From the NCBI GenBank assembly GCA_000165345.1, contig CM000432.1, positions 928,001 through 992,000 of the forward strand: a stretch of DNA of 64,000 nucleotides. The letters run 5' to 3'. Of the stretch, positions 7,717 through 26,326 are shown one piece after another. A program made the translations under genes and the position numbers. The notes below the pieces were generated by a model. The model was not told the DNA's origin and ran no database searches. It saw nothing but the letters and a program-made list of their open reading frames with translations. Within the stretch, counting starts at the first letter, position 1. Every line of letters begins with the position of its first letter.

Positions 7717-10700
7717 TTAACTAAAGTTAACATTGATTAACAATACAAACATTAAAATTGACCCAAAAAGCAAAGGTAACTTTACTGGAGTATTCAGAAT
7801 ATAAAAGGGGGAAGTGAGGAATGGTAAAAGTCTCATTGTAGTTTCAACTGAATTCAGAAGATTTGAACATATTGGAAGAATATCATAAACGTCTGGTACC
7901 CATTGCCAAAATTCAATAGTTAATATATGTATTTCAACCATAATATGCATTATATATAATAATGAAGCAGAAAGTAGTAGTGTTGAAATTGGAACAACAT
8001 TCCATAGTCTTATGGTTTTTATTGGCAGAGAATTAATTTCAACATAGCAGTAAACCAATACAAAAGAGATAGTTACAATTGCCAAAACATCTCTGAAAAG
8101 GTCAATAGGCTTCCAAAAATATTTGCATATTCTATGGGAAGTTCTTCTTGAATCAGCCCAAATAAAGAAAGGATATATTTGTGCTTCAAGGACTTGGTAG
8201 TATGAAGTTTCAGAATTACTTTCAATATTGCATAGATTAGCCTTGGAATAATTAATTTCGAAATGTTCAAAGTCTTGGTACTGAATTTCTGTGGAATAAT
8301 GATTTAATTTAAGGAAATTACTGAGCCTAATTTCTGGGCTCTTACTATTAATGGAATTCACAGGGGTTGTAGAGTTAGAAGGTTGAAGTAAATTTAAAGT
8401 ATTTTGAGGTGGATTTAATGAAAAACTATCAGTTACTTGAGTTGTCTTATTATTCCCAGTTTGAATATTCGCATTTGAGATTTCCAAAGGTCCACCATAT
8501 GCAATTTCTCCTACACTTTGCAATCTAATATTGGGATTACTCTGAGTTTTAAGTGAGTTATTTGAAGAATTCTTGGTTAAATACGCACTTGGTGAATTAT
8601 TTCCATTTGAACTTAATATAGAGTTCTTATCATCAATTATAAAAGACTTATTTGTAGATTTTTTATCTCTTGATTGTTTTTTTTCTCCTGAAAATAATGG
8701 AGTACCAATTGAATTGGCTCTGCTCACTTCCTTTGATGAGTAAGATTGAGAAATTAAAATTTTGCTATTTTTAGCATTTGGAAGTAAAATACTTAAAGGA
8801 GTTGAGAGAGCAGAATTAAAGATACTTGAGAGTGAATGGAAATGATATAAAGCAAGAATTACTGATATGATTGGGGAAGAAATCATTGAAAGTAATTGCC
8901 AATAGTATATAAATGCTGTAAAATGGAGAAATGAAACTGTTAATGGGTAAAATCTTGTAAATTGGAAAAGATGAGGATATTGGAATTGATAAAGCTTTCT
9001 ACATGAGTTTATATTACCAAATATAAATGTTAAATCTGCAGAGCTATATTTCCAGTCTCTAGAAATTGAAAATTCTGGACTACTATAACAATTAAAAGGT
9101 AACTTCATGGTAATTAGAAATGAAAATATGAGACAAATAACTTGAACAATAAATAATAAACGGTAACATTTGAAAGTTTTTTCAACATTATTATAACATA
9201 ATTTTGAAATTTCCAAAAATCCAATTTCTGGAATCTCTGTATAAGTATTTTCTGGAGAAAGATTATTCCTGGAAACTAGAAGCTTTTTAATTTGCTTTGA
9301 AGATATATCTTTCATATCAGTTGTTTGAGAAAGCGTGGCATTTCTAAGATTACTATGAAGATAAATTGCTCTCTTTGCTGTTTTAATTACTTGAGCATTT
9401 GTTTGTTCATAAAGAATCATAATTTCTGGTAATAATAAACTATTATTACATTTAAAACAAGAATTCAATTGGTCATACATATTCTCATCAATTCTAAATC
9501 CATGAAAAGTATAAATGATGATTGCTATACAAGTTAGTAATACAAAGCATACGATTTCTTCGTAAATTTGAGAAATTACAATCCATATAAAGAATGTAAG
9601 AATTGAAATTAGCTTTATAAAATTAAAGGCTTTTGAGAATTTGATAATAAGTGAAATAAGTGAATATTGGAATGACTCATAGAGATTTTCGTGATTACTT
9701 CTATACTTTCTCACTGGGAATTCTGAAACTTTATTAATTAAAAAACAAGCTTTAATGGAATTTAAAAGTCCTAACTTAATATTATTTTTTGAAGGAAATG
9801 GGATATTTAGCATAAAAACCAAGCCAAAATCCATTGTAAAATTACATCCCAAATCAGACAATACAGTTTCTTGGTTTATTTGACTTGAATATTTTATCAG
9901 CTTATTCTTAGCTGGATTACAAATCGAATAAAAACTTAAATTTGAATTGCAGTATATGGAAAAAAGTGTCAAAGCTGTAACGAAGCAAAGGATTACAAAT
10001 ACTATATCAGATTTTGTTAGCTTATTTTCCCAAGGAAGATTGGATATTTCTCTTAATTTCTCTATTAAACTCAGCTTGATTGGACAACCTTCATTAGTTT
10101 TACTTGTTCCGAAACTTTCAATAAACTCCATTTGGCCTTTCTCATTCTCAACATTATACATATTATCGTAATTATTATTGGAATTCCAAAAATGATAATT
10201 TTCGCTCTCCGAATTACCAAAATCTTCTTTAAACCCAAAAATATTCTTTTTATCATCAATTCCTACTGAAGAACCCAAATTATCCTCATCTATAGTATCT
10301 TTTTTATTTGAAGAAAAATTCATCTCCCAGTACCCACTCTTTGAATAATAATGTCTAACATTACCACTTTGAGTACCATAATATAAACAATAACTTGGAA
10401 GTCCACCAAATAGTTCAAGAATACTTGAAGGTTTATAATCTATTAAAGCAAGTAAATTTAAGCTCTCCATCAACTGTTCAGCAGAAAATAATTTTACGAA
10501 TCTTGAGGACAAAAGTGCATGCAATACCGGTAATGTGTCTCTCTGACCTTTATATTTATATAAAATTGTGGCGGCCCTTTGCAGAGGGGAATATGCATGC
10601 TCATCAAATGGCGGGAAATCACTCGGAAGAGCATCCAATAAGGCTAGAACATGAATTGCATCTGATGGAGATTTATAACTAACTCTGGTAAGGATTTCTC

Positions 10701-13700
10701 CGATAGTATCGGGTCTGAGCTTAACAATCGAATAAATTGCATCGGTACTAGCTTCACCAAATGGATATAAGAAATGGCTAGGGATAATACTAGGGTGAGC
10801 ATAAGAAGAAGTTGGTAATGAAGAAGGAGAAGAACCGGAATTGAATCCTGAAGGATTTGAGTTTGGTTGTAAGTTTGAGGAGGAAGAAGATGGGTTACAT
10901 TGTTGTTGGTTTGGATGAGAAGTTGAATATCTAAAAAATTGTGGATTTTCATGCAAATATGATCTTCCTTCAAATGGTTCATTAAAAAGATCTCTTGAGA
11001 CTCCTGGATTTGAGAAATACCTAGCAGATTCATCAGCATATTGATCATAAATATCTGGGCTACTTTTCGTTTTGAAGTTTGACGTTTTATACAAACGAGA
11101 ATTTGAGGATTTGTCATTTAATTCTTGGTAAATTGTGTCATGGAAGTTCATCATGTTATTGAAGCTATGATTTTCAATATGACTATTGCTATTTCTCTTG
11201 CAGTATTTGCAATTATTTCTACAGTTTCTCGTATACTTTAAGGAGTCTCTGTATGCTTTGTAGTCTCTATTCTTTGAGTTAAAGGGATCATTACAAATGG
11301 AATTTTCCATCAAATTTCTATTTTTAGAGAAAAGTTCCGTATTCAGAGCCAAAGAATTATTTGAATTGTATTTGAAGGAGCTGTGAGAATTATCAGAATC
11401 AAGTCCAACAGCGTACTCTAATAGTTTTCTAATATTCTCAATGGATTTATGTGAAGGACCTCTTCCAATAACAATTTTTGCAATGCTTTCAGGACTGTCG
11501 TCAACTTTAACATAATTAATGGAGAAGATTGACCTTAATCTTGGAGGAAGGATAGTTAAAGGAAGATCTTCAGGAGGAATAGTGTTAGAAGGAGTTCTAT
11601 TTTGAGACTCTTCATTCTGAAGGAGAAAATTTATATTTGTCCTCCATTTATTATCAAAGAAATTCTTCGTTCCAGTACCACTATTTGCAAAGAATTCTTT
11701 TGGTTCTCTAAGAATTTTCTTTTCAGTTCGATTTGATAAATCTCTTATTAGTTTCTTCTTCTTAAGCTTGAGAGAAAGAACAATATCATCATTTAAATCA
11801 TTTCCAAATAAATTACCATCTTGATGTTCAAAGTGGGAAAATTGGTTCTCATTAAGCTGTAACATGGATGTAATATCAACATTCTTCACATTCTTTAAAA
11901 TATGGACCGAATTCATCACTCTTCTTCTCCATATTGAAGTGCTTCCCATTGTTTCTTCGGAGTATTTCACTGCTATTTCCAGAAGATAGTAAATAATTCT
12001 TGTGGATAACTTCCTACTGACTGCATAATATATTGGATCAGTCATACTGGATCTATTTGACCAGATATTAATGAAAGAGTATGAAATATTAAACTTTTCT
12101 TTCAAGGTATGAATAATACTCTTTAATGCTCTTAAAGGCTGCTTTGATTTTGCCAAAATCTGTAAAATAAGAGGAGAATTGGTTTTTGGATCTTTAAATT
12201 GAAGCATATCAATAATTAGCTTCTTTGGTATTCTCTGAGCCTTTTTGATGATTAAATTTAATGGATAAATACCATATCTATCATCTCTATGGGGATTACA
12301 ATTCTGATAACCTAACCATCTATTACGTATTGCTCTACTATAAAAGTCAAGAATTATTTGTATTTGCTTAATATTACCATAATAAGCAGACCACCAGAAA
12401 GCTCCTCTTCCTTCTTCATCAGTTACTTGACAAATCATTGCTACCTTCTTTTTGCTTTCCATTTTGAGTAATCTATTCAAAATTGAATCTGAGATTCGGA
12501 TTTTAACAATATCAAGAACGTGTCTCGCCTCTTTTTCATAATCCTTCAGTTGTTTGAAGAAGTGATCACGGTTAAATTGTTTTTTAAAAGTCTTTCCTAT
12601 AAGTTTAAGATCAGATTTATCTTGGAAAGTTACATATTCTAATATAATGGATCTAATATCATTATCAGAGGTATTAATATCATAATTAGCATGATTTACA
12701 ATCCTTTCAATCATTTTACCGTCATTTTCACGAATTGCAAGATCCATTACATCTAGACCAGAGATAGGTGAAATTCTTAATGGATCTCCTCCATTGTCCA
12801 TGATCAAGCTTAGCATTGCTCCATTATGGTTTTCTAAAGCTATCATTAAAGGATTTAAACCAGTTCTTGGATCCCATGTATTAACACAAGCTCCATTTGA
12901 GATTAAGATCTCAGCCATTTCAAGATCATTATTTTCAACAGCATAGAATAGAGAGGTATGATTATAGTTATCAACCATATTTACAAGTTTTTTTTGATCA
13001 CATTCTAAATTATGAGTCAAAAGTTCTGGAAAATGAGAATCTGATTGTGTAGATTGACTCTTGGGTAGTTGAGTATATGTGGAAGAACCATCATTTTGAA
13101 GTTGATTCAAAAAATCAAGATCTAGGTCTTTTTTCTTATTAGAGCAATTAGAATATATGGTTGATCTTGAAGAATTAAAATAGCTTAAGGAAGATGAGGG
13201 AGAAGAAGGTAAAGTTGTGGAATTTGAGAATTTGGGAAAAGATAAAGTGGAATGATTAAGATCAGAAGATGAAATATTGGTAATATTAAAGCCAGAGGAT
13301 GAATAGGAATATGTATCAAAATCTTCCGGAGTATTTGGATCATTTTTGGATGTATCATTAACATTTGAAATTTCAGCAAGAATGAATTTGACAATTGAAT
13401 GGTTGGATTTACTTACAGCTAGAGTAAATAATTGAGGAAACTTTTCAAAAATGTGAATATCGAGACCATATTCAATAAGTTTCTTAAGTATATGCAAAGA
13501 TCCACTCCTTTTACGTCTTATAAGATTATATAGAATATGGTATCCTCCTTCAGTATCTAAGACTTTGCTTTTAATATTATTAAGTTTCTTGCAATAGATA
13601 AGATTTCTTTTTTTATATTCAGTATTATAAGTGGTAATATTAAGCATAAGAGGTTCAATAATATCCAAAATAGCTCTTGAGCTCATATCAGTTTCAAGAA

Positions 13701-14280
13701 AATCTGCAATTAGATATAATGGATGAATGTAATATGTAAGTTTTTCTTCTAACGGTACTTTTTGTACTGGCCTTTTGTAATAAATTGGAATAATTGCATT
13801 TTTTCGAATTCTAGCATTAAATGAAAAAAGCATAGATCCATCATGGTTAATAGCAGAATAGAGCTTGTTATCTGAGATATCCTCATGGTCGTTTTCAAAA
13901 TATACTAAACTCTCAAAGAAATCTTCAGTATCGTCAAGTTTTCCTGTTAACAACAGATTCTTTGTAACCTCAGGAAGTTCAACAAGTTCATTAATAAATT
14001 CAGGAAACATCATTTCCTCTCCACCAAGAATTTTATTATCCTTATATAGCTTATCTTCAGATAACTGTTCTAATCCTGCTCTTTTATAGTAGTAATTATC
14101 ATGAACATTGTTGCAATTAGCAATAGGTCCTCTAATTTCAGATCTTTCGACAAATTGAATACTTTTTAAAGCCTCCAAAAAACTCAGAATTAGGAAACAA
14201 ATTAGAATAGTAAAATTAATTCTCTTGGATTCATTATTTCTTAAGAAGACATTTTTTGTCTTATTTTGTGTGTTTTTCAT
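7717..14280 (-). CDS. Giant ankyrin-repeat multi-pass membrane protein, paralog B (2187 aa)
   Basis: ATG confirmed at 14280. N-terminal signal-anchor (INFTILICFLILSFL), ankyrin repeats at about aa 440-520 (NHTSLFYAVENNDLEMAEILISNGACVNTWDPRTGLNPLMIALENHNGAMLSLIMDNGGDP), at least 8 predicted C-terminal TM helices, and long S/N-rich low-complexity inserts. Shares conserved blocks with paralog A. Confidence 0.7.
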   Translation of the reverse strand: MKNTQNKTKNVFLRNNESKRINFTILICFLILSFLEALKSIQFVERSEIRGPIANCNNVHDNYYYKRAGLEQLSEDKLYKDNKILGGEEMMFPEFINELVELPEVTKNLLLTGKLDDTEDFFESLVYFENDHEDISDNKLYSAINHDGSMLFSFNARIRKNAIIPIYYKRPVQKVPLEEKLTYYIHPLYLIADFLETDMSSRAILDIIEPLMLNITTYNTEYKKRNLIYCKKLNNIKSKVLDTEGGYHILYNLIRRKRSGSLHILKKLIEYGLDIHIFEKFPQLFTLAVSKSNHSIVKFILAEISNVNDTSKNDPNTPEDFDTYSYSSSGFNITNISSSDLNHSTLSFPKFSNSTTLPSSPSSSLSYFNSSRSTIYSNCSNKKKDLDLDFLNQLQNDGSSTYTQLPKSQSTQSDSHFPELLTHNLECDQKKLVNMVDNYNHTSLFYAVENNDLEMAEILISNGACVNTWDPRTGLNPLMIALENHNGAMLSLIMDNGGDPLRISPISGLDVMDLAIRENDGKMIERIVNHANYDINTSDNDIRSIILEYVTFQDKSDLKLIGKTFKKQFNRDHFFKQLKDYEKEARHVLDIVKIRISDSILNRLLKMESKKKVAMICQVTDEEGRGAFWWSAYYGNIKQIQIILDFYSRAIRNRWLGYQNCNPHRDDRYGIYPLNLIIKKAQRIPKKLIIDMLQFKDPKTNSPLILQILAKSKQPLRALKSIIHTLKEKFNISYSFINIWSNRSSMTDPIYYAVSRKLSTRIIYYLLEIAVKYSEETMGSTSIWRRRVMNSVHILKNVKNVDITSMLQLNENQFSHFEHQDGNLFGNDLNDDIVLSLKLKKKKLIRDLSNRTEKKILREPKEFFANSGTGTKNFFDNKWRTNINFLLQNEESQNRTPSNTIPPEDLPLTILPPRLRSIFSINYVKVDDSPESIAKIVIGRGPSHKSIENIRKLLEYAVGLDSDNSHSSFKYNSNNSLALNTELFSKNRNLMENSICNDPFNSKNRDYKAYRDSLKYTRNCRNNCKYCKRNSNSHIENHSFNNMMNFHDTIYQELNDKSSNSRLYKTSNFKTKSSPDIYDQYADESARYFSNPGVSRDLFNEPFEGRSYLHENPQFFRYSTSHPNQQQCNPSSSSSNLQPNSNPSGFNSGSSPSSLPTSSYAHPSIIPSHFLYPFGEASTDAIYSIVKLRPDTIGEILTRVSYKSPSDAIHVLALLDALPSDFPPFDEHAYSPLQRAATILYKYKGQRDTLPVLHALLSSRFVKLFSAEQLMESLNLLALIDYKPSSILELFGGLPSYCLYYGTQSGNVRHYYSKSGYWEMNFSSNKKDTIDEDNLGSSVGIDDKKNIFGFKEDFGNSESENYHFWNSNNNYDNMYNVENEKGQMEFIESFGTSKTNEGCPIKLSLIEKLREISNLPWENKLTKSDIVFVILCFVTALTLFSIYCNSNLSFYSICNPAKNKLIKYSSQINQETVLSDLGCNFTMDFGLVFMLNIPFPSKNNIKLGLLNSIKACFLINKVSEFPVRKYRSNHENLYESFQYSLISLIIKFSKAFNFIKLISILTFFIWIVISQIYEEIVCFVLLTCIAIIIYTFHGFRIDENMYDQLNSCFKCNNSLLLPEIMILYEQTNAQVIKTAKRAIYLHSNLRNATLSQTTDMKDISSKQIKKLLVSRNNLSPENTYTEIPEIGFLEISKLCYNNVEKTFKCYRLLFIVQVICLIFSFLITMKLPFNCYSSPEFSISRDWKYSSADLTFIFGNINSCRKLYQFQYPHLFQFTRFYPLTVSFLHFTAFIYYWQLLSMISSPIISVILALYHFHSLSSIFNSALSTPLSILLPNAKNSKILISQSYSSKEVSRANSIGTPLFSGEKKQSRDKKSTNKSFIIDDKNSILSSNGNNSPSAYLTKNSSNNSLKTQSNPNIRLQSVGEIAYGGPLEISNANIQTGNNKTTQVTDSFSLNPPQNTLNLLQPSNSTTPVNSINSKSPEIRLSNFLKLNHYSTEIQYQDFEHFEINYSKANLCNIESNSETSYYQVLEAQIYPFFIWADSRRTSHRICKYFWKPIDLFRDVLAIVTISFVLVYCYVEINSLPIKTIRLWNVVPISTLLLSASLLYIMHIMVEIHILTIEFWQWVPDVYDILPICSNLLNSVETTMRLLPFLTSPFYILNTPVKLPLLFGSILMFVLLINVNFS

Positions 14281-14484: not shown

Positions 14485-14536
14485 TTGGCGGGAACATGTC
14501 TCATAATGTGGGCAAAAAAAAATAGTCATGCATGCA
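14485..14536. promoter_or_regulatory. E2F site TTTGGCGGGAAC (14485..14496) and CATGCATGCA (14527..14536) upstream of paralog B
   Basis: Motifs read directly, about 200-250 bp upstream of the ATG at 14280. Confidence 0.45.
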
Positions 14537-14784: not shown

Positions 14785-16458
14785 TTAACCGTCCCTAGAG
14801 TCACCAAAAGACTCCATATTTGGATTTTGCTCAATATTGTTCTGAACAGGATCTTTTTTCTTAGATACAGAGCTAAGAACATCGTCTATTCTGAGGAGCA
14901 TAAGAGTGGCTTCTACAGCAGTCTTATAGACTTGTTGCTTGACAGCAAGTGTATCCCAGATGCCGAGTTCCGTAACATTTGTAATAGCGCCAGTACATCC
15001 ATTAATTCCATGAACAGGTTTCTGCCCCCTGGTTGCAGATGAAGGTAGATAATGAGATTTTAATAAAGTCAAAGTCTTCATTACATTAGCTCCACAATTT
15101 TGAGCTAGAGTCTTTGGTATAATTTCCAGAGCTTGGGCGAAAGCTTTGTAGGCCCATACTTGGGTATCATCAATAGAAAATGACTTTTCATTCAAGTAAC
15201 AAGAAATGGCCATTTCTGTACCACCTCCGCCAGGAAGTAGAGCTGGATCAAGAAGGATATTTCTTGCAACAGCAAGAGCGTCATGGAGATTTCTCTCGAG
15301 CTCATTTAAGACGTCCTTGGATCCTCCTCGTAAAAGAATGGAGCATGCCTTTGGAGTTTTTGATTCGGTCAGGAAGCAAAAGTATTCATCTCCAATCTTC
15401 TTGACCTCGAATCTTCCGCAGCAAGTACCTACATCATTTGGTGTAAGCTCTTCTGTTCTGCTAGCAATAGTAGCTCCAGTGACTCTAGCGATTCTATTAT
15501 TATCGCTCTTCCTGACCCTTCTAATTACAGAAATTCCTGCCTTAACAAGGAAGTGTTGAGCAAGATCAGAAACACCTTTTTCTGTGAATACAACATTGCA
15601 ACCAGTTGCAATAATATCCTTACACATAGCTTCAACTTCTTCCTCCTCCTGTCTTAATAGAGCCTCCCAGTCTGCCTCCTTAGTGATTTCTACATTTGTC
15701 TGACTTTCGCCTTTCTTGTATTCAAGAGTACAGTCCAATAACAAAACCTTTGGATTAATGATCAATCTCTTCATTCGCGGGTGGACTACATCCTTGTTAA
15801 CAACTACACCATCTAAAACATAGCTATCCTCAATCTCACCTCCTGGAATCTTTTCAATTCTTACATATCTCTTAATATCAATTTCTTTTGGTGAACCTGA
15901 ATTAGCAATTGAGACAGTCTCAGCTGCTTTTAATGCCATAGAACTAATTAAACTACCCCATCTTCCAGAAAATTTAGTTTTTAAACAGGAGTCAACTACA
16001 CTAACCAAAGATTCTTTGTTATTTACATCCAATTTAACGCTCATTTCCTCCATGAACTTTATAGAGTCATCTAGTGCTCTTAAATAACCCTTTGCTATAA
16101 TTGTTGGATGTATGTTTTTCTGTAAGAGTGGCTCTGCACAAGCCAAGAACTCTCCTGCTAGAACTACAACACTTGTTGTTCCATCTCCTACTTCTTCATC
16201 TATAGTTCTTGAGAGTTCAATTATAGACTTTGCTCCTGGATGAGCAACATCAACCTCTCTCAAAATACTGTTTCCATCATTTGTAAGAACTATTCCACCC
16301 AAAGGATCTAAAAGCATTTTTAACATTGCTTTTGGGCCCAAAGTTGTTCTAACAACATCTGCAACAGTTTTTCCAGCTTGAATATTTCTTAACTGGGCTT
16401 TTCTTCCTTGATCTCTTTGAGAAGGTTGTTGTACAACCAAAACTTGATTTGGCATCAT
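14785..16458 (-). CDS. CCT3: T-complex protein 1 subunit gamma (CCT gamma chaperonin)
   Basis: ATG confirmed. N-terminus [103 protein letters not shown] aligns closely with eukaryotic CCT3. Group II chaperonin signatures present (GDGTTS ATP-binding motif). Confidence 0.9.
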
Positions 16459-16916
16459 CTTTAATTAATTCAAGTTAATATCCTTCTCTTAATAAGATTT
16501 CTTCCCCACTTAGCGATACTAAGGACTAGCTGATCGACTTTCCTTCAAATTGAGAATTAAATGATGAGTATTAATTAATTTTTTTTTGATAAAAGAGTTT
16601 TAATTAATATTTCACCATATAAAACCTTATTTTAGTGCTTAAACTTATTAGCTTCTTTTCCCCACCTTTTTCCCTCTATTATTTTATTTATTTTCTACTT
16701 ACTCAAACTGTCTATTTAGACTTTTTAATCCTATTAAATAGACGAATTGCTTTATTATTCTTTAAAATTAGACTATATATGTAATTTACTAGCTATGCTA
16801 ATTTTATTATTTATTTAATAGACAATCTGTTCTAGTTATATTATTTTAATTTATTAACTTATTCACATAAATAGCATATATAATAAATAAATTTAATATA
16901 TATGATATATATAAAT

Positions 16917-16928
16917 TTGGCGCCAAGT
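16917..16928. promoter_or_regulatory. Palindromic E2F-type site TTTGGCGCCAAG in the CCT3/CCT7 bidirectional promoter, plus GCCCGCC at 17143..17149 and TTTTGGCGGG at 17204..17213
   Basis: Read directly; located in the 1.3 kb region between the two divergent CCT genes. Confidence 0.5.
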
Positions 16929-17774
16929 GTGCTTTATTCATGATCACTAAATAATCAAGAATAATTGATTTAATTTAAAAATAAATATCAAAAAGTTTAT
17001 CCTAGTAAATTAGATATTGGAATCAATAATTGGATTCCATATTGTTTACTGTTATATTTTCTTAATTGTCTGTATTAATTTACTCATCTTTCTCTCACCT
17101 CCTTTTTTATCGGTACCCATTATTAAAAAATTATTTTTTGTTGCCCGCCTAAATGTTTTATTAATTAATTTATATTTTGTATTAATTTCAAGTAATTATA
17201 AGTTTTGGCGGGTAATTGATTAAATAATTAAATATAAATTATCAACAATTGTTAAATTAAATTTTAATTAAGAATTAATAAATAAATTTCGAGACGTAAA
17301 ATGTAATAAATATAAATAAAGTTTGACCCCACGGGAATAAGAATTAAATAAAGGTAGAAAAAAAAGTGAATAAAAGGCTTTGGGGGGAAAATAGAAAGTA
17401 AGTCCAAGCTAAATAGTAAATTGCCGATTTTGGAATATACGGGAAGCACTACAACCAAAAACCAGAATTTAAGAGGAGATTTTTCAGAATTAGACCTTTA
17501 CAGGGAAGATTTGAATTTATTTAGCCTTGTAGGAAAAGCTATTTCTGATTATTTTTTTTCTTAATAACAGAAAAACATATATTAATATTGGTAAATTAAT
17601 TAGTATATATAAGCATATATATTTATATAGATTTAATATTTGAGTTACTGCATAACTAAGTAAAAGCTAGTTTGGGTCATAATATTGGAAGAAATATAAA
17701 TATATAGACTTTAATATAGAATCATATTATAATAGATAATTGGTAATAAGAAAAAAAAAAGTAGTATTGAAGAA

Positions 17775-19448
17775 ATGTTGAGAGCTCCAATAATTCTTTT
17801 GAAAGAAGGATCAGATACATCCCAAGGTAAAGGTCAAATCTTGAGTAATATCACAGCATGCCAAGCAATTGTTGATATTGTCAAGACGACTTTGGGTCCA
17901 TATGGCATGGATAAACTTATTCATAGCGGTAACTCTCCAGATGATGTAACAATTACCAATGATGGAGCAACAGTCTTGAATTTACTTGGAATTGTGCATC
18001 CTGCAGCAAAACTATTAGTAGAGATAGCAAAGGCACAAGATGATGAGGTTGGAGATGGTACTACAAGTGTAGTAATTTTAGCAGGCGAATTCTTAAAAGA
18101 AGCAAAGGGCTTTATTGAAGATGGAATGTCTCCACAAGTAATAATATCAGGTTTTAGAAAAGCAAGCCAAATAGCAATAGACAAGGTAAATAGTATGAAG
18201 ATCAGCCTTTCCGAGGAGACTCCAGAAAAGAGACGAAGTATGTTAATAAAATGTGCTGAGACAACTTTGAACTCAAAGTTATTAGCTCATTATAAGACTC
18301 ATTTTGCAGAAGTTGTAGTCGATGCTGTTTCATACTTGGATAATGAAATGGATAAAGACCTCATTGGGATTAAGAAGATTAATGGAGGGTCAGTTATGGA
18401 TAGTTTTCTAGTAAAGGGAGTAGCATTTAAGAAGACATTTTCATACGCAGGTTTTGAACAACAGCCAAAACATTTTGTGAATCCTAGAATCCTCTTATTA
18501 AATCTTGAATTGGAACTTAAGGCAGAGAAGGATAATGCTGAAGTTAGAATCTCTGACCCCACTGCCTACCAAAGTATTGTAGATGCAGAGTGGAAGATTA
18601 TCTTTGAGAAATTGGATCTCATTGCCAATTCAGGAGTAAATGTGGTTTTAAGCAGACTTGCAATTGGAGATTTGGCTACTCAGTACTTTGCTGATAGAAA
18701 TATCTTTTGTGCTGGAAGAGTTGAGGAGCAGGACCTTAAGAGAACCTCTTTGGCAACAGGAGCCATTGTGCAAACAACAGTTTATGGCTTAAACAAAGAT
18801 AGTGGAGTATTTGGTACTTGTTCTGAATTCGAAGAGGTTCAAATTGGAGCTGAGAGATATAATATCTTCAGAGACTGTGCAAAGACAAAGTCATCCACAA
18901 TGATCTTGCGTGGTGGTGCTCAGCAATTTATTGATGAAGCTGAGAGATCCTTGAATGATGCAATTATGATTGTAAGAAGAGCAATGAAATCATCATATAT
19001 TGTTCCTGGAGGAGGAGCTATTGAAATGGCTGTTTCTAAGACTATTAGAGATCACGCTAGAACAATTCTTGGTAAGGAGCAATTAGTCATGAATTCTTAT
19101 GCAAGAGCTCTAGAAGCAATTCCTAGATCCTTAGCAACAAACTCTGGGTTTGACTCCATTGATATCTTAAACAGACTTAGACAAAAGCACTCACAAAACA
19201 CCGAAGATTGTAGTAATTATGGTGTAGATTGCAGCAACGGAGGGATTTGCGATACTTTTAACTCATTCATTTGGGAGCCAGCTGTGAATAAGCTTAGTGC
19301 TTATTCAAGCGCAACAGAAGCTGCATGCTCTATTCTTTCTATTGATGAGACTGTTAAAAACAAGTCCAGTGAGGAGGATAGAATGCAGGGTCCTCTACCT
19401 GGAATGGGTGGTATCCCTCCAGGTATGATGGGCGGAGCAAGGAGATAA
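17775..19448 (+). CDS. CCT7: T-complex protein 1 subunit eta (CCT eta chaperonin)
   Basis: ATG confirmed. [51 protein letters not shown]...[47 protein letters not shown] matches CCT7 throughout. Gly/Met-rich C-terminal tail [15 protein letters not shown]. Confidence 0.9.
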
Positions 19449-20119: not shown

Positions 20120-23100
20120 ATGAATAGAAGAATTTTTAAAGAAACAAAGTTATTTTGGATTTTAATTCCAATTATAATATGTATAATATCACTTTCAACG
20201 AATATTTTTGATATTAATTCAATTGAAAAGAATAACAAAATATTTAAACTATGGAATGGAATATTAGAGAATGGAGATAAATTTTTAACAATAAGAAAGC
20301 TGGTAGGATTATCAAGAAATAAAGAATATAATCATAAGAAATATCCAATATTACGCCCAAAATATAATATTAGAGAAAAAAACAAGGTAAAAAATTGGAA
20401 TGACTTAGGGGTAGTATTGCAAAGTAAATGGCCACAAGTACCGTTAGAAGCTTCATTGATAGAATTTCTATCAGAGTTTTACCTAGGAATAGGAAGTACA
20501 TTTGAAGACTTAGTGAGAGATTTAATTAATATAAATAACCACGAAGATGGAAATAAAATTATTACAGCAAGGTTAGCAAGTGAATTGGTTGATAATAATC
20601 TAGGGATCAAATTAATGGAGACTATGGTAATTAATAAATACTATTCTCCTAGAATTGAGTCAATTCGAACATTAGAAAGAAATCAAAGAAGTGTTTTTGG
20701 AATAATATGCAAAAAGGCTAGTTGGTTTATTGTTATATATCAAGAAGAGACTGTTGATACATTTTGTAATTCCAATGATCTTTATAATAGTGTAATAAAA
20801 GGGAGATCTAAAGGATTTGAGAATGTAGAAAAATATGATTTAAGCTTCTCAAAATTTGATTTAGCAAAAGAACATATAATTGAAAATACTTATATCAATA
20901 TAGAAGAAAACAATAAAGTGAAAAAAATTGATATTTACGCATATGTCGATTTTTCAGAAGATAATTCTATAGAAATTTTGAATAACTTATTGAATATTTG
21001 GGATATATTAAAAGATCAAGGTCATGTAAGAATAAAAATTAGACATTGTGATAATGCTGATCTGAATGGTGAGATTGAATATTTATCTGGATTTGGAGTT
21101 TCAGTGAATAAACTATCAGAAAAATCGAATTCAGTAAATAATTCAAGTTCAGCTAAAAATGATATTTTTCAAAATGAGTTTAAATTCTCCCAACATAATC
21201 ATGATGAATTGGAATATTCTCACAAGGATGAAGAGTATAAAAACTTGACCGCAATGTGCGATAAAGCTGTGAATATGGAAAATGTATTAAATTCTGATGG
21301 GGATTTATCTATTGAATGTATGAAAGATATTGGAGCATTTCTAGTATCATTATCCAAAAGATTTGAGGACCAATTAGGTGCAATGGTACATTATTTAGAG
21401 AATTTTGGGACTTATCAAGTAGCATTGTGTAATGGATTAAGAGAAAACACTACTTTATCGGGCTATAATCAATTGCATGATCGTGTTTCAGAAGGATCCA
21501 CATTCTTTACTCTTAATGGAAGATTATTTTCCCCAACCGAAACAAATTTTTTTAATTTGGTTACTTTATTAAAGAGTTTAATTTTCTCAAAAATCAGATT
21601 AATGAAAAATAAGATCGATGATGAAGTTGTTATTATAGATTCTTTATCAATAACCGGAGTAAATGAGAAGGAAGAACTAAATCTATTTATGGAAAGTATT
21701 AATGGCCAATTGAATGATTCAAGAATTAATAACAAGTATAATAATGTAATAAAAGATAAGGGGTTAAAAAACCTAATAGAGAGAGGAGAAGTTCTTGATT
21801 TTGGCTCAATACTTGAATTTGAGAAGGATTTAGAAGAAGATCCAACTTTAATGGACGATACAGATTGGCTTGGGAAAAGAGAATATGTATTATCAAGCTC
21901 ATCTCCATGGCTGAAGAATTCTCCAAGAACTGATTGGAGAGTATCAAATATTCTTCCTTTGAAATCACGTCATTTTTACAAGGATATTACTAATATTGGT
22001 GATTCTCAATGGGGTGTGACTCCTAGTATTTTTGAAAAGGTATGGTTTCATAGAAACATTACTGAAAATAATGAAGATCAAGAGGATATTATTAATGATC
22101 TTGAAGAAAATAACTCCACTGAAGCGAAGATTTTACAAGAAATTGAATATTCACCATGGATAATGTACAGGATATATTTTTCAAATCAGGTTAAAAATTC
22201 GAGATTAATTCAAGATTATCCAATATATGATATTATGAAGGAACCAGAAAATACACTGGGTCAGTATTTATATCCATTAGAGAGTTTGCCAGAATTATTT
22301 GAAAAATATCCTGAAAATGTAGGGATTTATCCAGTCAAGGCTACAATTCTCGAAATAATAATAATGTGTGATCCATTTGATATAGAATGTATTACAGTGA
22401 CCATTGAAATGATTAATAAGAAGTGGCCAATAAAGTTAAACTTGTTATTAATAGACCCAGAATGGGTTAATTCCAGAAAGCCGGATTATTCTAGACCATT
22501 TTCATACAAAAATGTGACTTCAGAAGATGATTTTGAAGCTAAGTTTAGAGATATTTATGAAACTCAGAGAGAAATAGAAATTAATAAGGAAGGAAATCAA
22601 ACATACTGTAATAAAAATTATGGAGAGGAAAATGTTCAGAATTGCCCAAAGTGGATGAATAAGAAAAGAGGATTAAATTCTAGGAGGATATTGGATTACT
22701 ATGAGAAATTTGACAATAATTCAAAAGGAGAATATGCCTTGAAATTGGCAATTTCAGAAGTTTTTGGATTCTTGGTTTCTTCTTCTACAATTCAAGGAAT
22801 GTTTCTTGCAAGAGGTTTTATTGAAATGGTTGCAAAGAATTTACCATTAATATTAGAAGAAGAATTTACTTTAAGTCAGTTTCAAGAGTTTTTGAGTAAA
22901 TTCTTTGCTCATTTTAGTATCAATGCAGAATTAACCAAAGTTTGGGAGATTATTTATTCCAATAATCCAAATGATATATCTTACGTGAATAAGGTGGTAT
23001 CGTATTGTAGACTTAAAGGATTCACAACTCCTGGAGCTTTAGTTAATGGTTACTTTGTGGAAATTACTGATTTAATATTGGAAGAAGTAATCTATGGAAT

Positions 23101-26100
23101 AGCTAAAAAAGAACAGAGAATTATTTTGGAAGGTGTTAAACAAGGTCAAATCACCAGTAGTGATGATATTTATCATTATATATTTAATAATACATTAACT
23201 GGAATTAATTCAGTACCTATTGTTTTTCCACCATTCACAAAGTCGATGAAGTTTGAGAATTGGCCATTTATTGGAATACAAAATGAATGGAAACATATTG
23301 AAAAAGAAATCAATTATAAGCTTCATGAAAAATATGATATTGATAATTTGAAAGAAAATAGTAAGAAAAATGAAAATAATTCAATTTCTTACAAAGAAGA
23401 TAAAAGTGAATATCAAATCACCATTTTGGAAGAAAATGATAATGAGGAAAGGATTTTATTTGATTTTGAAGAATTATCAAGTTTGGAATATTCAACATTA
23501 TGGGATATTAATCCTGAATTAAAGCAAAATATGGAAAGTATTGAAAATAAGAGTCAATCAACTCCATGGATTACATTTATTGTATTAGTAAGATCATCGA
23601 GAACAGGATTATTAGGACTTTTAACTTTGATTGATTATTGGATTTCTACATTATCTTATCAAGCATCTATGCATCTGAATCAGTATAATGAATTATTATA
23701 TAATAGAAGATTCAGATTAATGTTTATTCCACCAAATGAAGTTCAACATAATTCAGATTTCTCACTGATTTTAGAAAAATGTATTGATGATATCTTATAT
23801 TTGAAAAAATATAACAAGGAAGGAAGAAAGATTTCATCTTTTGTTCCAATTTTGGAAAAGTTAAGGTTTATTAAATGGTTTGTCAAAGTAATCTTAGAGA
23901 ATATGGATGATTATATGGATTCTAGTCATTCTAAAATTAAAAGTGAGTTATTTGGAGAAAGAATTATTGAGATTTATGAGTCCCTTTCTTTTAGCTTTTT
24001 TGGAAAGTCTGGAAATGGGAGATTTAACGAAGAGAATTTAGAAGATATTTATTTAATTGAGTCTCAGAATAGAGTCAAAAACAAGTTGGTAAGTAAATTC
24101 TCATCTAGAAAAGAAAAAGAGGTAATATCTTTTCCATATTCTTCAGTGGGAAATGCTAAGTTAAAGGGTTTTCCAAAGTATACAAATTATAATTTAAATA
24201 AAGAAAAGTCTGATCCAAATTATGGAAGAGGAAGTTTCCAAGATACTGAATTATCAAATAAGGATTGTTTTGAAACTTTCACAATGGGAATTGTTATAAA
24301 TGGTGTCTATTTAAGAATTTGTCCAAATACATATCCTGTTTATTTGAGAAATGATATTAAAGTAAATTATTGGTCTTCTCCAATTCATTCTGTACATTTT
24401 AAACTATTGGAAACTGCAGTAACGAATAGAATGAGGCATTTGGTTTTATTTGGAGAGTTTAAGAGGACAGGAAAAAAGGAAGATCTTCTTTATAGAAGAA
24501 AATGGTCAAATATGGATCCAAACCAATTTTTTATGTTATTTAGTGAGCATTTACATGTTTCAAATTTATTCAAATCTGAATCTTTAATACAATTGGACGA
24601 CATTTTTGCTTCTTCAAGTTCACTTATTAAGCTTCATTTACCGACTGTTAATACAGGGAAAAGTTCAAATTTTAAAAATAATGCTTTGATTGGATTAGTG
24701 GCTGTAGTGAATCCCATTACACCTTATAGTACCAATATATTGAGATTATTTGATATTTTACATCAATTATTGGAAGCCGATGTAAAGCTGGTGTATAATC
24801 CTGTGATAAGTTATCAGAATATTAATGAGATTAATTTGATTGATACGTGGAGAAGGTATGTTTTTAATTATCCAAAGCTCAAATCATATAGGAAAGATAC
24901 TCCATATCAAGTAGTGACAAGCTTAAAGGAGCTAATGTATTCCAAAGGAGATCCAAGTGAATTTAAGATAGGTAAAGATGATTTATACTATTATAATTCT
25001 CAATTCATTGCAAAGTTCGATATACAAACAGAAAAGAGACTCAATATTAATATAGAAAAAAGTAATGATTGGAGTATAAGTTACTTAAAAACTATTTTTC
25101 GTCAATCAACAATTAGTAAAGAAAATGATTATTTTATTGTACCTGGTAATATTTCCAATGCAAAAGGAGAGTTATTGGTTTATGAACTTAAAGGTAAAGA
25201 GTTTGAAGCAACATTAATAGATAAATTGTCATCAGAAGTTGGGAATCTCAAGAATAATATAAAAGAAATTCAATTAATATTGCCATCAAGTAATTTCAAA
25301 TTTGAAATTGAATCTAAAAAAGTGTCACCAATACAAAAGATTTATTCAATAACTGATTTTAATAGTTTCTTTGGTTATCTTGGGATTGGAACTAATGATT
25401 TGGTACTAACTTTTGGTAGTGATATTAATAATAATACTACTAAGAAAGAAAATTTATCTATGAGTTTTCCAATTCAAGTATTTAATCAGAGATTATTTGA
25501 AACCAATCAATTTGTTGTACACCTTTCAAAATTATCAAAGATAAATAAAGAAAAAGTAAATTATGTAGAATTTAAAGAAAATTCAAGAAGATTATTTAGA
25601 GAGTTACATATTTTCTGTTTATCAACTCATATATTGAAAAAAGATGTTGAAGGAGATATAATAGATAAATTAATTGATCTAATTGATAAAGGATTTACAG
25701 GAAAAGCTGGAAATTACTATAATAAATTTATTATTTATTTTGATAGTAAAGATATTAGTCAAACAATAAGAGATTATTTCAACTACAAGTTATTTTGGAA
25801 ATATTATATAAATATAGAATATTTGGAAATTACAAGACCAAAATGGATACCTAGATTATCAAGTCAAAATAATAATTCAATGATGGATATTTTATTAACA
25901 TTAGAACATTGGATACCAACAAGAGTTAATAAATTGTTATTATTGGATCCATTTTTGTTGAATAGTAATACTTTTGATTTGGATGATTATTTTGGTCTAG
26001 TAAGTACAAATAAGACAATAAGTAATAATAAGATAAAAATAGGAGATTCAGCAATGACATTTATTAAAAAAAATGATAAAAGTGGATCAATAAGTACAAA

Positions 26101-26326
26101 AATGGGATTAATTTTGGTGAATAATTACAAGAAAATTGGGAGTTATTTAAAAAGAGCTTATTTTGAAATGTATTATGATTTTGAAGTTAGTAAGAAATTA
26201 AGACAAAATGAAGAAAATAATCAAAGTATGATGGATTTATTTATTTCTTATTTGAGAAGTAATAAAGAACTCAAGATTGAAGATGATACATATGAAAAAG
26301 ATCAAAACAAAATCCCAATTACTTAA
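20120..26326 (+). CDS. UDP-glucose:glycoprotein glucosyltransferase (UGGT)-like ER protein, 2068 aa, with divergent C-terminal GT8-like domain
   Basis: ATG confirmed. N-terminal signal/TM (LFWILIPIIICIISLS). N-terminal block EASLIEFLSEFY resembles UGGT EASEFL. IEYLSGFGVSVNKLSEK resembles UGGT VYLSGYGVELAIKSTEY. C-terminal block ITRPKWIPRL...LLTLEHWIPTRVNKLLLLDPFLL resembles the GT8 region YKWPRWL...FLDVLFPLVVDKFLFVDADQIV. The canonical DAD appears replaced by DPF and there is no HDEL-like terminus. These are by-eye alignments. Confidence 0.5.
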   Translation: MNRRIFKETKLFWILIPIIICIISLSTNIFDINSIEKNNKIFKLWNGILENGDKFLTIRKLVGLSRNKEYNHKKYPILRPKYNIREKNKVKNWNDLGVVLQSKWPQVPLEASLIEFLSEFYLGIGSTFEDLVRDLININNHEDGNKIITARLASELVDNNLGIKLMETMVINKYYSPRIESIRTLERNQRSVFGIICKKASWFIVIYQEETVDTFCNSNDLYNSVIKGRSKGFENVEKYDLSFSKFDLAKEHIIENTYINIEENNKVKKIDIYAYVDFSEDNSIEILNNLLNIWDILKDQGHVRIKIRHCDNADLNGEIEYLSGFGVSVNKLSEKSNSVNNSSSAKNDIFQNEFKFSQHNHDELEYSHKDEEYKNLTAMCDKAVNMENVLNSDGDLSIECMKDIGAFLVSLSKRFEDQLGAMVHYLENFGTYQVALCNGLRENTTLSGYNQLHDRVSEGSTFFTLNGRLFSPTETNFFNLVTLLKSLIFSKIRLMKNKIDDEVVIIDSLSITGVNEKEELNLFMESINGQLNDSRINNKYNNVIKDKGLKNLIERGEVLDFGSILEFEKDLEEDPTLMDDTDWLGKREYVLSSSSPWLKNSPRTDWRVSNILPLKSRHFYKDITNIGDSQWGVTPSIFEKVWFHRNITENNEDQEDIINDLEENNSTEAKILQEIEYSPWIMYRIYFSNQVKNSRLIQDYPIYDIMKEPENTLGQYLYPLESLPELFEKYPENVGIYPVKATILEIIIMCDPFDIECITVTIEMINKKWPIKLNLLLIDPEWVNSRKPDYSRPFSYKNVTSEDDFEAKFRDIYETQREIEINKEGNQTYCNKNYGEENVQNCPKWMNKKRGLNSRRILDYYEKFDNNSKGEYALKLAISEVFGFLVSSSTIQGMFLARGFIEMVAKNLPLILEEEFTLSQFQEFLSKFFAHFSINAELTKVWEIIYSNNPNDISYVNKVVSYCRLKGFTTPGALVNGYFVEITDLILEEVIYGIAKKEQRIILEGVKQGQITSSDDIYHYIFNNTLTGINSVPIVFPPFTKSMKFENWPFIGIQNEWKHIEKEINYKLHEKYDIDNLKENSKKNENNSISYKEDKSEYQITILEENDNEERILFDFEELSSLEYSTLWDINPELKQNMESIENKSQSTPWITFIVLVRSSRTGLLGLLTLIDYWISTLSYQASMHLNQYNELLYNRRFRLMFIPPNEVQHNSDFSLILEKCIDDILYLKKYNKEGRKISSFVPILEKLRFIKWFVKVILENMDDYMDSSHSKIKSELFGERIIEIYESLSFSFFGKSGNGRFNEENLEDIYLIESQNRVKNKLVSKFSSRKEKEVISFPYSSVGNAKLKGFPKYTNYNLNKEKSDPNYGRGSFQDTELSNKDCFETFTMGIVINGVYLRICPNTYPVYLRNDIKVNYWSSPIHSVHFKLLETAVTNRMRHLVLFGEFKRTGKKEDLLYRRKWSNMDPNQFFMLFSEHLHVSNLFKSESLIQLDDIFASSSSLIKLHLPTVNTGKSSNFKNNALIGLVAVVNPITPYSTNILRLFDILHQLLEADVKLVYNPVISYQNINEINLIDTWRRYVFNYPKLKSYRKDTPYQVVTSLKELMYSKGDPSEFKIGKDDLYYYNSQFIAKFDIQTEKRLNINIEKSNDWSISYLKTIFRQSTISKENDYFIVPGNISNAKGELLVYELKGKEFEATLIDKLSSEVGNLKNNIKEIQLILPSSNFKFEIESKKVSPIQKIYSITDFNSFFGYLGIGTNDLVLTFGSDINNNTTKKENLSMSFPIQVFNQRLFETNQFVVHLSKLSKINKEKVNYVEFKENSRRLFRELHIFCLSTHILKKDVEGDIIDKLIDLIDKGFTGKAGNYYNKFIIYFDSKDISQTIRDYFNYKLFWKYYINIEYLEITRPKWIPRLSSQNNNSMMDILLTLEHWIPTRVNKLLLLDPFLLNSNTFDLDDYFGLVSTNKTISNNKIKIGDSAMTFIKKNDKSGSISTKMGLILVNNYKKIGSYLKRAYFEMYYDFEVSKKLRQNEENNQSMMDLFISYLRSNKELKIEDDTYEKDQNKIPIT

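Follow-up and report, generated by a model that had tools for sequence, protein, structure and literature searches.

Two chaperonin subunit genes lie head-to-head in the window (the whole 64,000-nucleotide stretch that was analysed) and are separated by a divergent intergenic spacer, with the following coordinates.

14785..16458, minus strand: CCT gamma (CCT3) coding sequence, 557 aa, intronless, ATG start
16459..17774, no strand assigned: divergent intergenic spacer, 1316 bp between the head-to-head CCT3 and CCT7
17775..19448, plus strand: CCT eta (CCT7) coding sequence, 557 aa, intronless, ATG start

The minus-strand ORF matched TIGR02344 (chap_CCT_gamma) over its full length with 835 bits (cut-off 553), the runner-up CCT model being alpha with 383 bits, and PDB CCT gamma chains were top-ranked against its residues 5-540 (E ~1e-200). 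Likewise, the plus-strand ORF gave a full-length match of 809 bits to TIGR02345 (chap_CCT_eta; cut-off 669, runner-up CCT model alpha with 419 bits), and PDB CCT eta chains were its top matches, aligned from residue 1. Since both proteins align nearly end to end with solved CCT structures, their start codons and intronless state are sound. The exact sequences are found in the Cryptosporidium parvum annotation as T-complex protein 1 subunit gamma and as T-complex protein 1 subunit eta (CPATCC_001647), respectively, and the pair is a C. parvum chromosome-4 locus at which both genes had been annotated previously. The identities, the head-to-head orientation and the 1316-bp distance given in a preliminary description of this DNA, made from the letters alone, thus agree with the ORFs and with the TIGR and PDB matches. 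A literature search by cgd4 gene identifiers found nothing useful. A hidden protein-coding gene in the spacer was rejected: only two ORFs of at least 50 aa are present, both TTG-started, the alignments contain many indels that are not multiples of three, and the plus strand has no ATG from 17304 to 17774.

Upstream of the gamma gene, a head-to-head CCT eta gene was found in C. serpentis, C. canis, the Logan species, C. ubiquitum, C. bovis, C. meleagridis and C. ryanae. Altogether the pairing is kept in eight other Cryptosporidium genomes examined, with orthologous spacers of 716-1302 bp; C. felis is consistent with the pairing, and the CCT3 and CCT7 proteins of C. hominis and of chipmunk genotype I have consecutive accession numbers. 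Around CCT3 of Neospora and Eimeria, no CCT neighbour was found within 10 kb. The comparison of synteny in other apicomplexans, which had been proposed as a check, was therefore positive throughout the Cryptosporidium examined and negative in the other two genera, so that the adjacency is present throughout the genus Cryptosporidium and missing from the coccidians checked. A recent inverted duplication as the origin of the pair is excluded by the protein identity of CCT3 and CCT7 (29%), from which sequence comparison identifies the two as ancient paralogues and their adjacency as a secondary arrangement.

Within and at the end of the spacer, we located the following features, in the order from CCT3 to CCT7.

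16499..16514, minus strand: conserved block TTCTTCCCCACTTAGC; its G-box-like GTGGGG is in the sense orientation of CCT3 and precedes the CCT3 ATG by 46 nt
16658..16675, minus strand: TTCCCCACC-TTTTTCCCT, a conserved block with the second G-box-like element, which precedes the CCT3 ATG by ~200 nt
16710..16721, no strand assigned: palindrome GTCTATTTAGAC, with more TAGAC copies at ~16739 and ~16819
16917..16926, no strand assigned: E2F-like site 1, palindrome TTGGCGCCAA, 461 nt from the CCT3 ATG
17144..17149, minus strand: E2F-like site 2, GGCGGG, which reads TTTAGGCGGGCAA on the minus strand
17203..17212, plus strand: E2F-like site 3, TTTTGGCGGG, with GGCGGG at 17207-17212
17288..17334, plus strand: genus-wide bipartite element TTCGAGACG - N - TTTGACCCCACGG, with a G-box-like CCCCACG
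17304..17774, plus strand: ATG-free zone, putative CCT7 5' leader, 471 nt, which includes the GC-richer 17300-17550
17552..17559, plus strand: T8 run; a T run of at least 7 is conserved in six intestinal-clade species

The preliminary description had reported a palindrome accompanied by two further GGCGGG-type sites. TTGGCGCC is present on both strands at 16917-16926, which makes site 1 a perfect 10-bp palindrome, TTGGCGCCAA; the outer bases of the 12-mer first described are not palindromic. Both further sites were found, one on each strand (17144-17149, minus; 17207-17212, plus). Taking TTTSSCGC / [C/G]GCGC[G/C] or GGCGGG with T/A-rich flanks as the sequence definition of an E2F/DP site, the spacer contains three, TTTGGCGCCAAG, TTTAGGCGGGCAA (minus strand) and TTTTGGCGGGTAA. 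Sites of the form GGCG[CG][CG] number three in the spacer, whereas 5000 dinucleotide-preserving shuffles had 0.08 on average and never as many as three, and the enrichment over a shuffled background on which the preliminary description had staked its E2F proposal is thus present. Site 1 lies 414-461 nt from the CCT3 ATG in C. parvum, C. meleagridis, C. ubiquitum, the Logan species, C. canis, C. bovis and C. ryanae, its counterpart in the last two being CGCGCCAA; site 2 is kept in six of eight species, C. ubiquitum having the weaker ACCCGCT; and site 3 is among the six best-conserved spacer blocks. The E2F-like positions are conserved in 6-7 of the eight species, the order of E2F and other motifs is conserved across all eight, and the cumulative purine-minus-pyrimidine count of the plus strand has its minimum at or beside sites 2 and 3 in every one of them. 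Because the three E2F-like sites hold their position in orthologous spacers, they are probably functional.

The preliminary description went on to tie the TRiC complex specifically to the E2F cell-cycle programme, a link that the distribution of the motif does not bear out. The E2F-like motif class occurs 37 times in the whole window versus 2.0 expected, has a non-coding density 6.6 times the coding one and is found in 12 of the 14 window spacers that contain a gene start; its density in the CCT spacer is not higher than in the other non-coding DNA of the window (P = 0.14). E2F-like is also the most over-represented upstream motif in C. parvum, and the expression clusters that contain E2F motifs have their maxima at any time point (PMC3734150), while E2F is the dominant motif of open chromatin (ATAC peaks) in this species (bioRxiv 10.1101/2025.01.17.633476). 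Since E2F is the known dominant promoter motif of C. parvum and E2F-like sites are found in nearly every promoter, the sites mark a default promoter type and not a TRiC-specific cell-cycle tie. They match the published DTTGSCGCCH and TTTGGCGGGAAV of C. parvum E2F/DP promoters (Oberstaller et al. 2013, PMC3734150; Xiao et al. 2025, 10.1101/2025.01.17.633476) and are located in a divergent spacer, as are most regulatory peaks of C. parvum; compared with the genome-wide E2F/DP pattern, the CCT spacer is distinct only in the number of sites (three) and in the cross-species conservation documented here.

The more locus-specific signals are the three G-box-like CCCCAC/GTGGGG elements and the TTCGAGACG...GACCCCACGG element. 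GTGGGG was counted 11 times in the window versus 3.45 expected, and three times in the CCT spacer (16504, 16660 and 17327) versus 0.06 in shuffles, all three within best-conserved blocks. The block TTCTTCCCCACTTAGC, with GTGGGG at 16504-16509, has 15 of 16 columns invariant and is one of six near-invariant blocks in five intestinal-clade species; the CCCCACC of the second element recurs in C. serpentis, C. bovis and C. ryanae; and the CCCCACG of the bipartite element is invariant in nine of nine species, including C. serpentis and C. felis, with GAGACR located 20-49 nt upstream of it (start-to-start). All three elements have the features by which an apicomplexan G-box is recognised in sequence, namely a G.GGGG core upstream of a gene, enrichment and conservation. 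[quoted passage not shown] Another G-box-binding ApiAP2 is cgd2_2990. The likeness here is one of predicted elements, conserved and placed upstream of two chaperonin genes; the differences are that the extended GACCCCACGG with its upstream GAGACG is not described in these three papers, and that the element is not oriented in the same way towards CCT3 as towards CCT7. The palindrome GTCTATTTAGAC is kept in C. parvum, C. meleagridis, C. ubiquitum and C. canis and rearranged in the Logan species, and it resembles 'WTAGACR', a motif of unknown function (PMC3734150). A conserved mini-uORF is located at 16604-16618 on the minus strand and may be part of the CCT3 mRNA. Among the motifs enriched in C. 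parvum ATAC peaks, poly-T ranks second (bioRxiv 10.1101/2025.01.17.633476), and the T8 run could mark an alternative, downstream transcription start region.

Between 17327 and 17774, the sense strand contains no ATG versus 5.9 expected from dinucleotide shuffles (P = 0.0005). Over 409-448 nt the same holds in four species (C. parvum, C. meleagridis, the Logan species and C. canis; none versus 5.7-7.0 expected, P <= 0.001), and the antisense strand of the zone is not depleted. This ATG-free zone upstream of CCT7 is the longest among the 16 window genes checked; it starts at the conserved element in six of nine species and in four continues from there unbroken as far as the start codon, one or two ATGs being found inside the putative leader of C. 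bovis, C. ryanae and C. felis. Only the 200 nt from the T run to the start codon show a strong, strand-specific depletion; in the segment from CCCCACG to the T run it is weak (0 versus 2-3 expected, P 0.02-0.08 per species), and there the antisense strand has no ATG in three species. A purine-rich sense strand is established here as a mark of transcription only for coding regions. A leader intron from GTAAGT at 17399 to AACAG at 17563 was rejected, the splice-like strings not being conserved in C. ubiquitum, the Logan species and C. canis.

The centre of the spacer had been described as higher in GC and as a possible site of a small ncRNA at 17320-17560. The composition is real, 100-nt windows across 17300-17549 having a GC content of 28-35% versus 11-22% in most of the flanking spacer; the small ncRNA gained no support from any of the searches. 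Rfam at gathering score gave no matches in the whole window and, at E <= 10 over 16400-17800, nothing relevant apart from a chance DapZ match, and ARAGORN found no tRNA or tmRNA. RNAalifold analysis of the GC-richer segment from six species resulted in a consensus of -0.73 kcal/mol without covariation, in which 14 of the 21 pairs form an outer helix joining a G/A-rich stretch to the T run, mostly by G-U and A-U pairs. When the segment was folded as a single sequence and compared with shuffles, no stable fold was obtained (z = +1.20 on the plus strand and 0.00 on the minus strand), and no lncRNA is listed between CCT3 and CCT7 by Li et al. 2021. Three likenesses to known RNA classes were dismissed: a C/D snoRNA or U3, for which CUGA precedes the T run in C. 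parvum and C. meleagridis only; the SRP Alu 'UGUAAU'; and a Pol III B box ('GGTTCGA', Logan species), the last two being neither conserved across species nor supported by Rfam. Because the GC-richer centre lies inside the 471-nt ATG-free zone upstream of CCT7, 17300-17550 is most likely CCT7 5' leader or promoter-proximal sequence.

It is improbable, in our view, that 17300-17555 is instead an independent non-coding transcript, an unstructured lncRNA or promoter-associated RNA that would extend from the GAGACG/CCCCACG element to the T run, with a separate CCT7 start downstream. Such a transcript would account for a segment that opens with the best-conserved spacer element and closes at a T run kept in six species, and for the faint ATG depletion of this segment taken alone, which is not strand-specific; moreover, E2F site 3 precedes the element by ~80 nt, and according to the literature many lncRNAs of C. 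parvum have an E2F motif upstream. However, beyond the Rfam, folding and lncRNA-catalogue results given above, the distance from the element to the CCT7 ATG is 111 nt in C. serpentis and 262-281 nt in C. bovis and C. ryanae, where the T run is missing, and therefore the 230-nt unit is not conserved genus-wide. The unbroken run without ATG from the element to the CCT7 start in four species likewise argues against such a transcript.

Head-to-head genes are commonly considered to share a bidirectional promoter when their transcription starts are close (commonly under 1 kb). Judged from the ATG-free zones, the CCT3-CCT7 start-to-start distance would be ~690-950 bp, the start codons being 1316 bp apart. 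In place of the single shared 1.3-kb promoter of the preliminary description, the motif layout and the ATG-free zones suggest two promoter-proximal modules and a long CCT7 leader. That one shared bidirectional promoter co-regulates both TRiC subunits, its E2F sites putting TRiC under the E2F cell-cycle programme, is a doubtful proposition, even though the head-to-head layout is kept across the genus, the oppositely oriented central GGCGGG pair coincides with the strand-composition switch, and more than half of the ATAC peaks of C. parvum carry the annotation of bidirectional promoter (bioRxiv 10.1101/2025.01.17.633476). By our own estimate, the chance adjacency of any two of the eight CCT genes among ~3,900 genes is ~1-2%, which would also favour a shared promoter; Cryptosporidium genomes, however, are highly syntenic overall, and the kept adjacency is therefore weak evidence for selection. 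The distance between the start codons compares with a mean intergenic distance of 504 bp in C. parvum (literature), the conserved motifs split into two gene-proximal groups, and the E2F-like sites, as set out above, are generic in the genome and accompany expression peaks at any time. In Table S4 of Li et al. 2021, CPATCC_0016470 is assigned to cluster 5 and CPATCC_0016480 to cluster 7, identifiers whose assignment to CCT7 and CCT3 is partly indirect, that of gamma being deduced from consecutive accession numbers; the two genes thus appear to belong to different expression clusters in one published dataset, and the co-regulation previously suggested for them is unsupported.

The same difference between clusters, read with the same reservation about the identifiers, is consistent with an adjacency that is a neutral accident of genome compaction, the promoters being fully independent and each conserved block belonging to its own gene. 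We hold this to be possible, though short of probable. The long spacer and its gene-proximal motif groups point the same way, as do the other CCT genes, which in the portion of the records retrieved are scattered on chromosomes 2, 5, 6 and 7 and in several expression clusters. In the published subunit order of the TRiC ring, CCT3 is not directly next to CCT7, which also counts in favour of a neutral adjacency. Fully independent promoters are harder to reconcile with the central E2F pair, which is equidistant as far as composition goes and could act on both genes, and with G-box-like elements of the same type flanking both genes.

The reading that we consider likely is that of an annotated divergent pair with a three-part spacer, the default E2F promoter type, a long AUG-free CCT7 leader and no structured small RNA. 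The spacer comprises a CCT3-proximal part with the two conserved G-box-like GTGGGG elements, the TAGAC palindrome and the E2F-like palindrome, a central part with the oppositely oriented GGCGGG pair where the strand composition switches, and a CCT7-proximal part with the TTCGAGACG...GACCCCACGG element followed by ~450 nt without sense-strand ATG up to the start codon. In C. parvum, these motif families are known to be read by E2F/DP and by G-box-binding ApiAP2 factors, which would bind here, make the region accessible and promote Pol II transcription in both directions. The CCT7 mRNA would begin at or downstream of the conserved element and carry the long AUG-free leader, of which the GC-richer, purine-rich 17300-17550 would be a part, or else it would belong to the promoter immediately upstream, rather than being a structured small RNA. 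The CCT3/CCT7 locus is an ordinary divergent gene pair, which as it stands offers a clean illustration of the described C. parvum promoter grammar (E2F-like sites plus G-box, divergent layout and AUG-free leader) and raises no new question.

Partner genes arranged head-to-head include human HSPD1/HSPE1 (Hsp60/Hsp10) and the histone pairs H2A-H2B and H3-H4, in which the spacers are of a few hundred bp and co-regulation has been demonstrated. CCT3 and CCT7 resemble HSPD1/HSPE1 as two parts of one chaperone machine that diverge around a common spacer, but differ in the 1316-bp length of that spacer and in the different expression clusters suggested by one dataset. If co-regulatory, the pair would be a small example of a compact parasite genome balancing essential chaperonin subunits, and its conserved G-box-like elements would become candidates for control sites specific to chaperones, easily testable with the available CRISPR tools. 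A more far-reaching scheme, to which we give little credence, would take the TTCGAGACG-N-GACCCCACGG element and the purine-rich, GC-richer 230 nt 3' of it as a dedicated regulatory module, the 230 nt acting either as a leader that responds to stress or as an unstructured, promoter-associated RNA. Along with the CCT3 G-box-like elements and another conserved CCCCACG, which is found upstream of the next gene (19847), this module would form a small proteostasis regulon read by a G-box-binding ApiAP2 factor, and the pair would be held together by selection for balanced CCT3/CCT7 output.

The product of 14785..16458 scored 835 bits against TIGR02344 (gamma) and that of 17775..19448 809 bits against TIGR02345 (eta), in each case above the curated cut-off and with the other subunit models scoring far lower, and the top solved-structure matches were CCT gamma and CCT eta chains; the subunit assignment is unambiguous. 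The preliminary description had placed the two ORFs at exactly these coordinates and strands, and its gene identities and head-to-head layout are confirmed:

14785..16458, minus strand: CCT gamma (CCT3) ORF, 557 aa, ATG start
17775..19448, plus strand: CCT eta (CCT7) ORF, 557 aa, ATG start

Since the structural alignments run essentially end to end, the start codons are right, introns are absent and the divergent intergenic region (the spacer, 16459..17774) measures 1316 bp. Exact protein look-up assigned the window to C. parvum, where both products are already annotated as subunits of T-complex protein 1 (gamma, and eta with locus tag CPATCC_001647), and the locus is an ordinary divergent gene pair, annotated before. 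GC content across the AT-rich window is 17-39% per kb. An origin of the pair by recent inverted duplication was ruled out, because the two proteins share only 29% identity and are thus ancient paralogues. Two very large tandem ankyrin-repeat proteins (1578..6788 and 7717..14280, minus strand; 1736 and 2187 aa) lie beside CCT3, and both neighbours recur at every Cryptosporidium locus fetched.

Orthologous CCT3/CCT7 loci were fetched from other Cryptosporidium species, Neospora caninum and Eimeria flavescens. These genomes have a CCT eta gene upstream of gamma in head-to-head orientation:

C. serpentis (gastric clade): spacer 716 bp
C. canis: spacer 1211 bp
Logan species (one Cryptosporidium species from a Logan assembly): spacer 1300 bp
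C. ubiquitum: spacer 1263 bp
C. bovis: spacer 1107 bp
C. meleagridis: spacer 1302 bp
C. ryanae: spacer 1073 bp

In C. hominis and chipmunk genotype I, gamma and eta carry consecutive protein accession numbers. In C. felis both the gamma and the eta contig stop inside the spacer (L008:1-510 and L011:1-823), which is compatible with adjacency, not proof of it; the spacer is an assembly break point in that genome. No chaperonin neighbour was found within 10 kb of CCT3 in N. caninum or E. flavescens. Synteny therefore holds across Cryptosporidium genomes and fails in these two, making the pairing a trait of the genus. Its genus-wide conservation is a modestly new point, and weak evidence for selection, since Cryptosporidium genomes are highly collinear anyway. 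Further CCT genes, among those listed in a published table, are on chromosomes 2, 5, 6 and 7 (PMC3734150). In C. canis, two GenBank proteins of 2636 aa that were grouped with CCT eta appear to join it to the downstream 2058-aa gene; as a third C. canis assembly annotates the two apart, the fusion is probably an annotation artefact.

The spacer contains three E2F-like sites:

16917-16926, both strands: palindrome TTGGCGCCAA, perfect, 10 bp
17144-17149, minus strand: GGCGGG, motif match
17207-17212, plus strand: GGCGGG, motif match

In 5000 dinucleotide-preserving shuffles of the spacer, 0.08 GGCG[CG][CG] sites were expected and none of the 5000 reached three, so the E2F-type sites proposed earlier are indeed enriched over a shuffled background. 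Position and orientation of all three are kept in most orthologous spacers, which argues for function of these predicted sites. The motif is nevertheless generic, with 37 matches window-wide against 2.0 expected. Non-coding DNA holds 21 of the 28 distinct positions, a density of 1.06 per kb versus 0.16 per kb in coding DNA (6.6-fold); 12 of the 14 window spacers with at least one gene start carry a site, and none was found in the convergent (3'-3') spacers of the window. Upstream of C. parvum genes no motif is more over-represented than the E2F-like type, whose two variants mark 114 and 47 of some 200 expression clusters; the clusters with these motifs peak at any time point (PMC3734150). In sporozoite open chromatin, too, an E2F-like motif dominates, and over half of the peaks there were called bidirectional (bioRxiv 10.1101/2025.01.17.633476). 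The sites thus mean a default C. parvum promoter, not a wiring of TRiC, the CCT chaperonin complex, to the cell cycle; the specific link drawn earlier is not supported, and three sites in 1316 bp are unremarkable against the other non-coding DNA of the window (P = 0.14). The CCT3-CCT7 locus works like the divergent E2F-motif promoters described as the norm in this species.

Six conserved blocks (at least 7 of 8 columns invariant) were found in the spacer alignment of the five intestinal-clade species with complete spacers:

16499-16514: TTCTTCCCCACTTAGC
16658-16675: adjoining pair TTCCCCACC / TTTTTCCCT
17203-17212: TTTTGGCGGG
17288-17296: TTCGAGACG
17322-17334: TTTGACCCCACGG

CCCCAC, GTGGGG on the opposite strand, lies within three of the six and matches the apicomplexan G-box core G.GGGG. 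GTGGGG occurs 3 times in the spacer (0.06 expected from shuffles) and 11 times in the window (3.45 expected). Heat-shock genes are reported to have the G-box upstream, and the ApiAP2 protein cgd8_810 binds it in vitro (PMC3734150; PMC2832001; PMC12246861); judged by their motif, the spacer elements would belong to this chaperone-gene family. CCCCACG is invariant in nine of nine species, C. serpentis and C. felis included, always with GAGACR 20-49 nt upstream, and this conserved GAGACG...CCCCACG element (17288..17334) is modestly new. Eight species share one motif order: CCT3 ATG, G-box, G-box, TAGAC palindrome, E2F palindrome, E2F(-), E2F(+), GAGACG, CCCCACG, CCT7 ATG. In every species the plus-strand cumulative purine-minus-pyrimidine curve reaches its minimum at or beside the central E2F pair. 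Five C. parvum-type Logan assemblies with the identical eta protein differ in the spacer only at 16578, 17098-17100 and 17613 (a single T more or less in a T run, a CCT indel of 3 bp and a G/A SNP), and no variant touches a conserved motif.

The GC-richer centre of the spacer noted earlier is real (17300-17550, 28-35% GC vs 11-22% in most of the flanking spacer), yet the small ncRNA proposed at 17320..17560 found no support. No Rfam family reached gathering score in the whole window, nothing relevant appeared in the spacer at E <= 10, and no tRNA was found. The six-species RNAalifold consensus reached -0.73 kcal/mol, with 14 of its 21 pairs in one helix of a G/A-rich stretch against the T run at 17552-17559, and single-sequence folds were no better than shuffles (z-score +1.20 on the plus strand, 0.00 on the minus strand). 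Measured back from the CCT7 ATG, CCCCACG is 448 nt away in C. parvum and 386-444 nt away in the remaining intestinal species; the distance is 262-281 nt for C. bovis and C. ryanae and just 111 nt for C. serpentis, so the length of the unit is not conserved. The lncRNA list of Li et al. 2021 has no entry between CCT3 and CCT7, though nearby genes have listed ones. A structured RNA is not supported by this evidence, and we consider an independent unstructured transcript quite unlikely.

Upstream AUGs tend to be avoided in leaders of translated mRNAs, and sense-strand ATGs were therefore counted. From CCCCACG to the CCT7 start (409-448 nt) C. parvum, C. meleagridis, the Logan species and C. canis have none, against 5.7-7.0 expected (dinucleotide shuffles, P <= 0.001), with no antisense depletion. 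The ATG-free zone upstream of CCT7 spans 471 nt, the longest among 16 window genes checked (runner-up 266 nt), a further modestly new point, and its upstream edge coincides with the conserved element for six of nine species; the closest ATG of C. serpentis overlaps that element, reading GATGCCCCACGG. The GC-richer segment is thus most likely the 5' part of a putative long CCT7 leader. Alternatively, transcription starts near the T run at 17552-17559, a type of motif for which ATAC peaks are likewise enriched (bioRxiv 10.1101/2025.01.17.633476), and the segment is promoter-proximal DNA. Depletion is strong and strand-specific in the 200 nt from the T run to the CCT7 start and weak in the GC-richer segment alone (0 vs 2-3 expected, P 0.02-0.08), where antisense ATGs are likewise 0 in three species; the putative leader also contains one or two ATGs in C. 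bovis, C. ryanae and C. felis. Upstream of CCT3, the intestinal clade has an ATG-free zone of about 155 nt. It ends at a conserved ATG, 160 nt before the CCT3 start codon, that opens a mini-ORF of 2-6 codons in the five intestinal-clade species:

16604-16618, minus strand: mini-ORF ATG GTG AAA TAT TAA (C. parvum)

It would count as a uORF if it is part of the CCT3 mRNA; according to a 2025 review, uORFs have not yet been described in Cryptosporidium.

Head-to-head pairs of complex partners include human HSPD1/HSPE1 and divergent histone genes, which CCT3-CCT7 resembles, although its spacer is far longer and shared regulation here is putative. In the subunit order published for the TRiC ring, CCT3 and CCT7 are not known to sit side by side. 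Table S4 of Li et al. 2021, in which mRNAs were k-means clustered into seven broad groups, places CPATCC_0016470 in cluster 5 and CPATCC_0016480 in cluster 7. The former is eta (via QOY42049 = CPATCC_001647) and the latter would be gamma, going by its consecutive accession number; the different clusters point, indirectly, away from tight co-regulation. Li et al. 2021 describe cluster 5 as being switched on at 48 h, which is odd for a housekeeping chaperonin, and the identifier mapping is therefore treated with caution. Overall, the genes, their layout and conserved, real motifs stand from the preliminary description, whereas the cell-cycle link, the single shared promoter and the small ncRNA are unsupported.

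The sole other CCCCACG of the window (19847-19853, plus strand) lies upstream of the 2068-aa ORF 20120..26326. Every species examined retains it, as does the copy before CCT7; it reads CCCCACGAA or, for C. bovis and C. ryanae, CCCCAC, and precedes the next gene's ATG by 163-465 nt. The ORF product is weakly UGGT-like (Thioredoxin_13 below threshold), and its C. serpentis orthologue has a recorded Glyco_transf_24 match. An intergenic GTGGGG (40394-40399, plus strand) lies 509 nt upstream of ORF 40903..44130 (proteasome RPN2, proteostasis), a single site too little for any conclusion. GCATGC (AP2_1-like) occurs between CCT7 and the next gene at 19685-19690 and 19795-19800; the latter copy (GCGCATGCA) is kept in C. 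meleagridis and C. canis, with related copies in C. felis, C. bovis and C. ryanae. A further copy, CATGCATGCA, is present at 14529-14536, within the spacer that separates the 3' end of CCT3 from the ankyrin-repeat gene.
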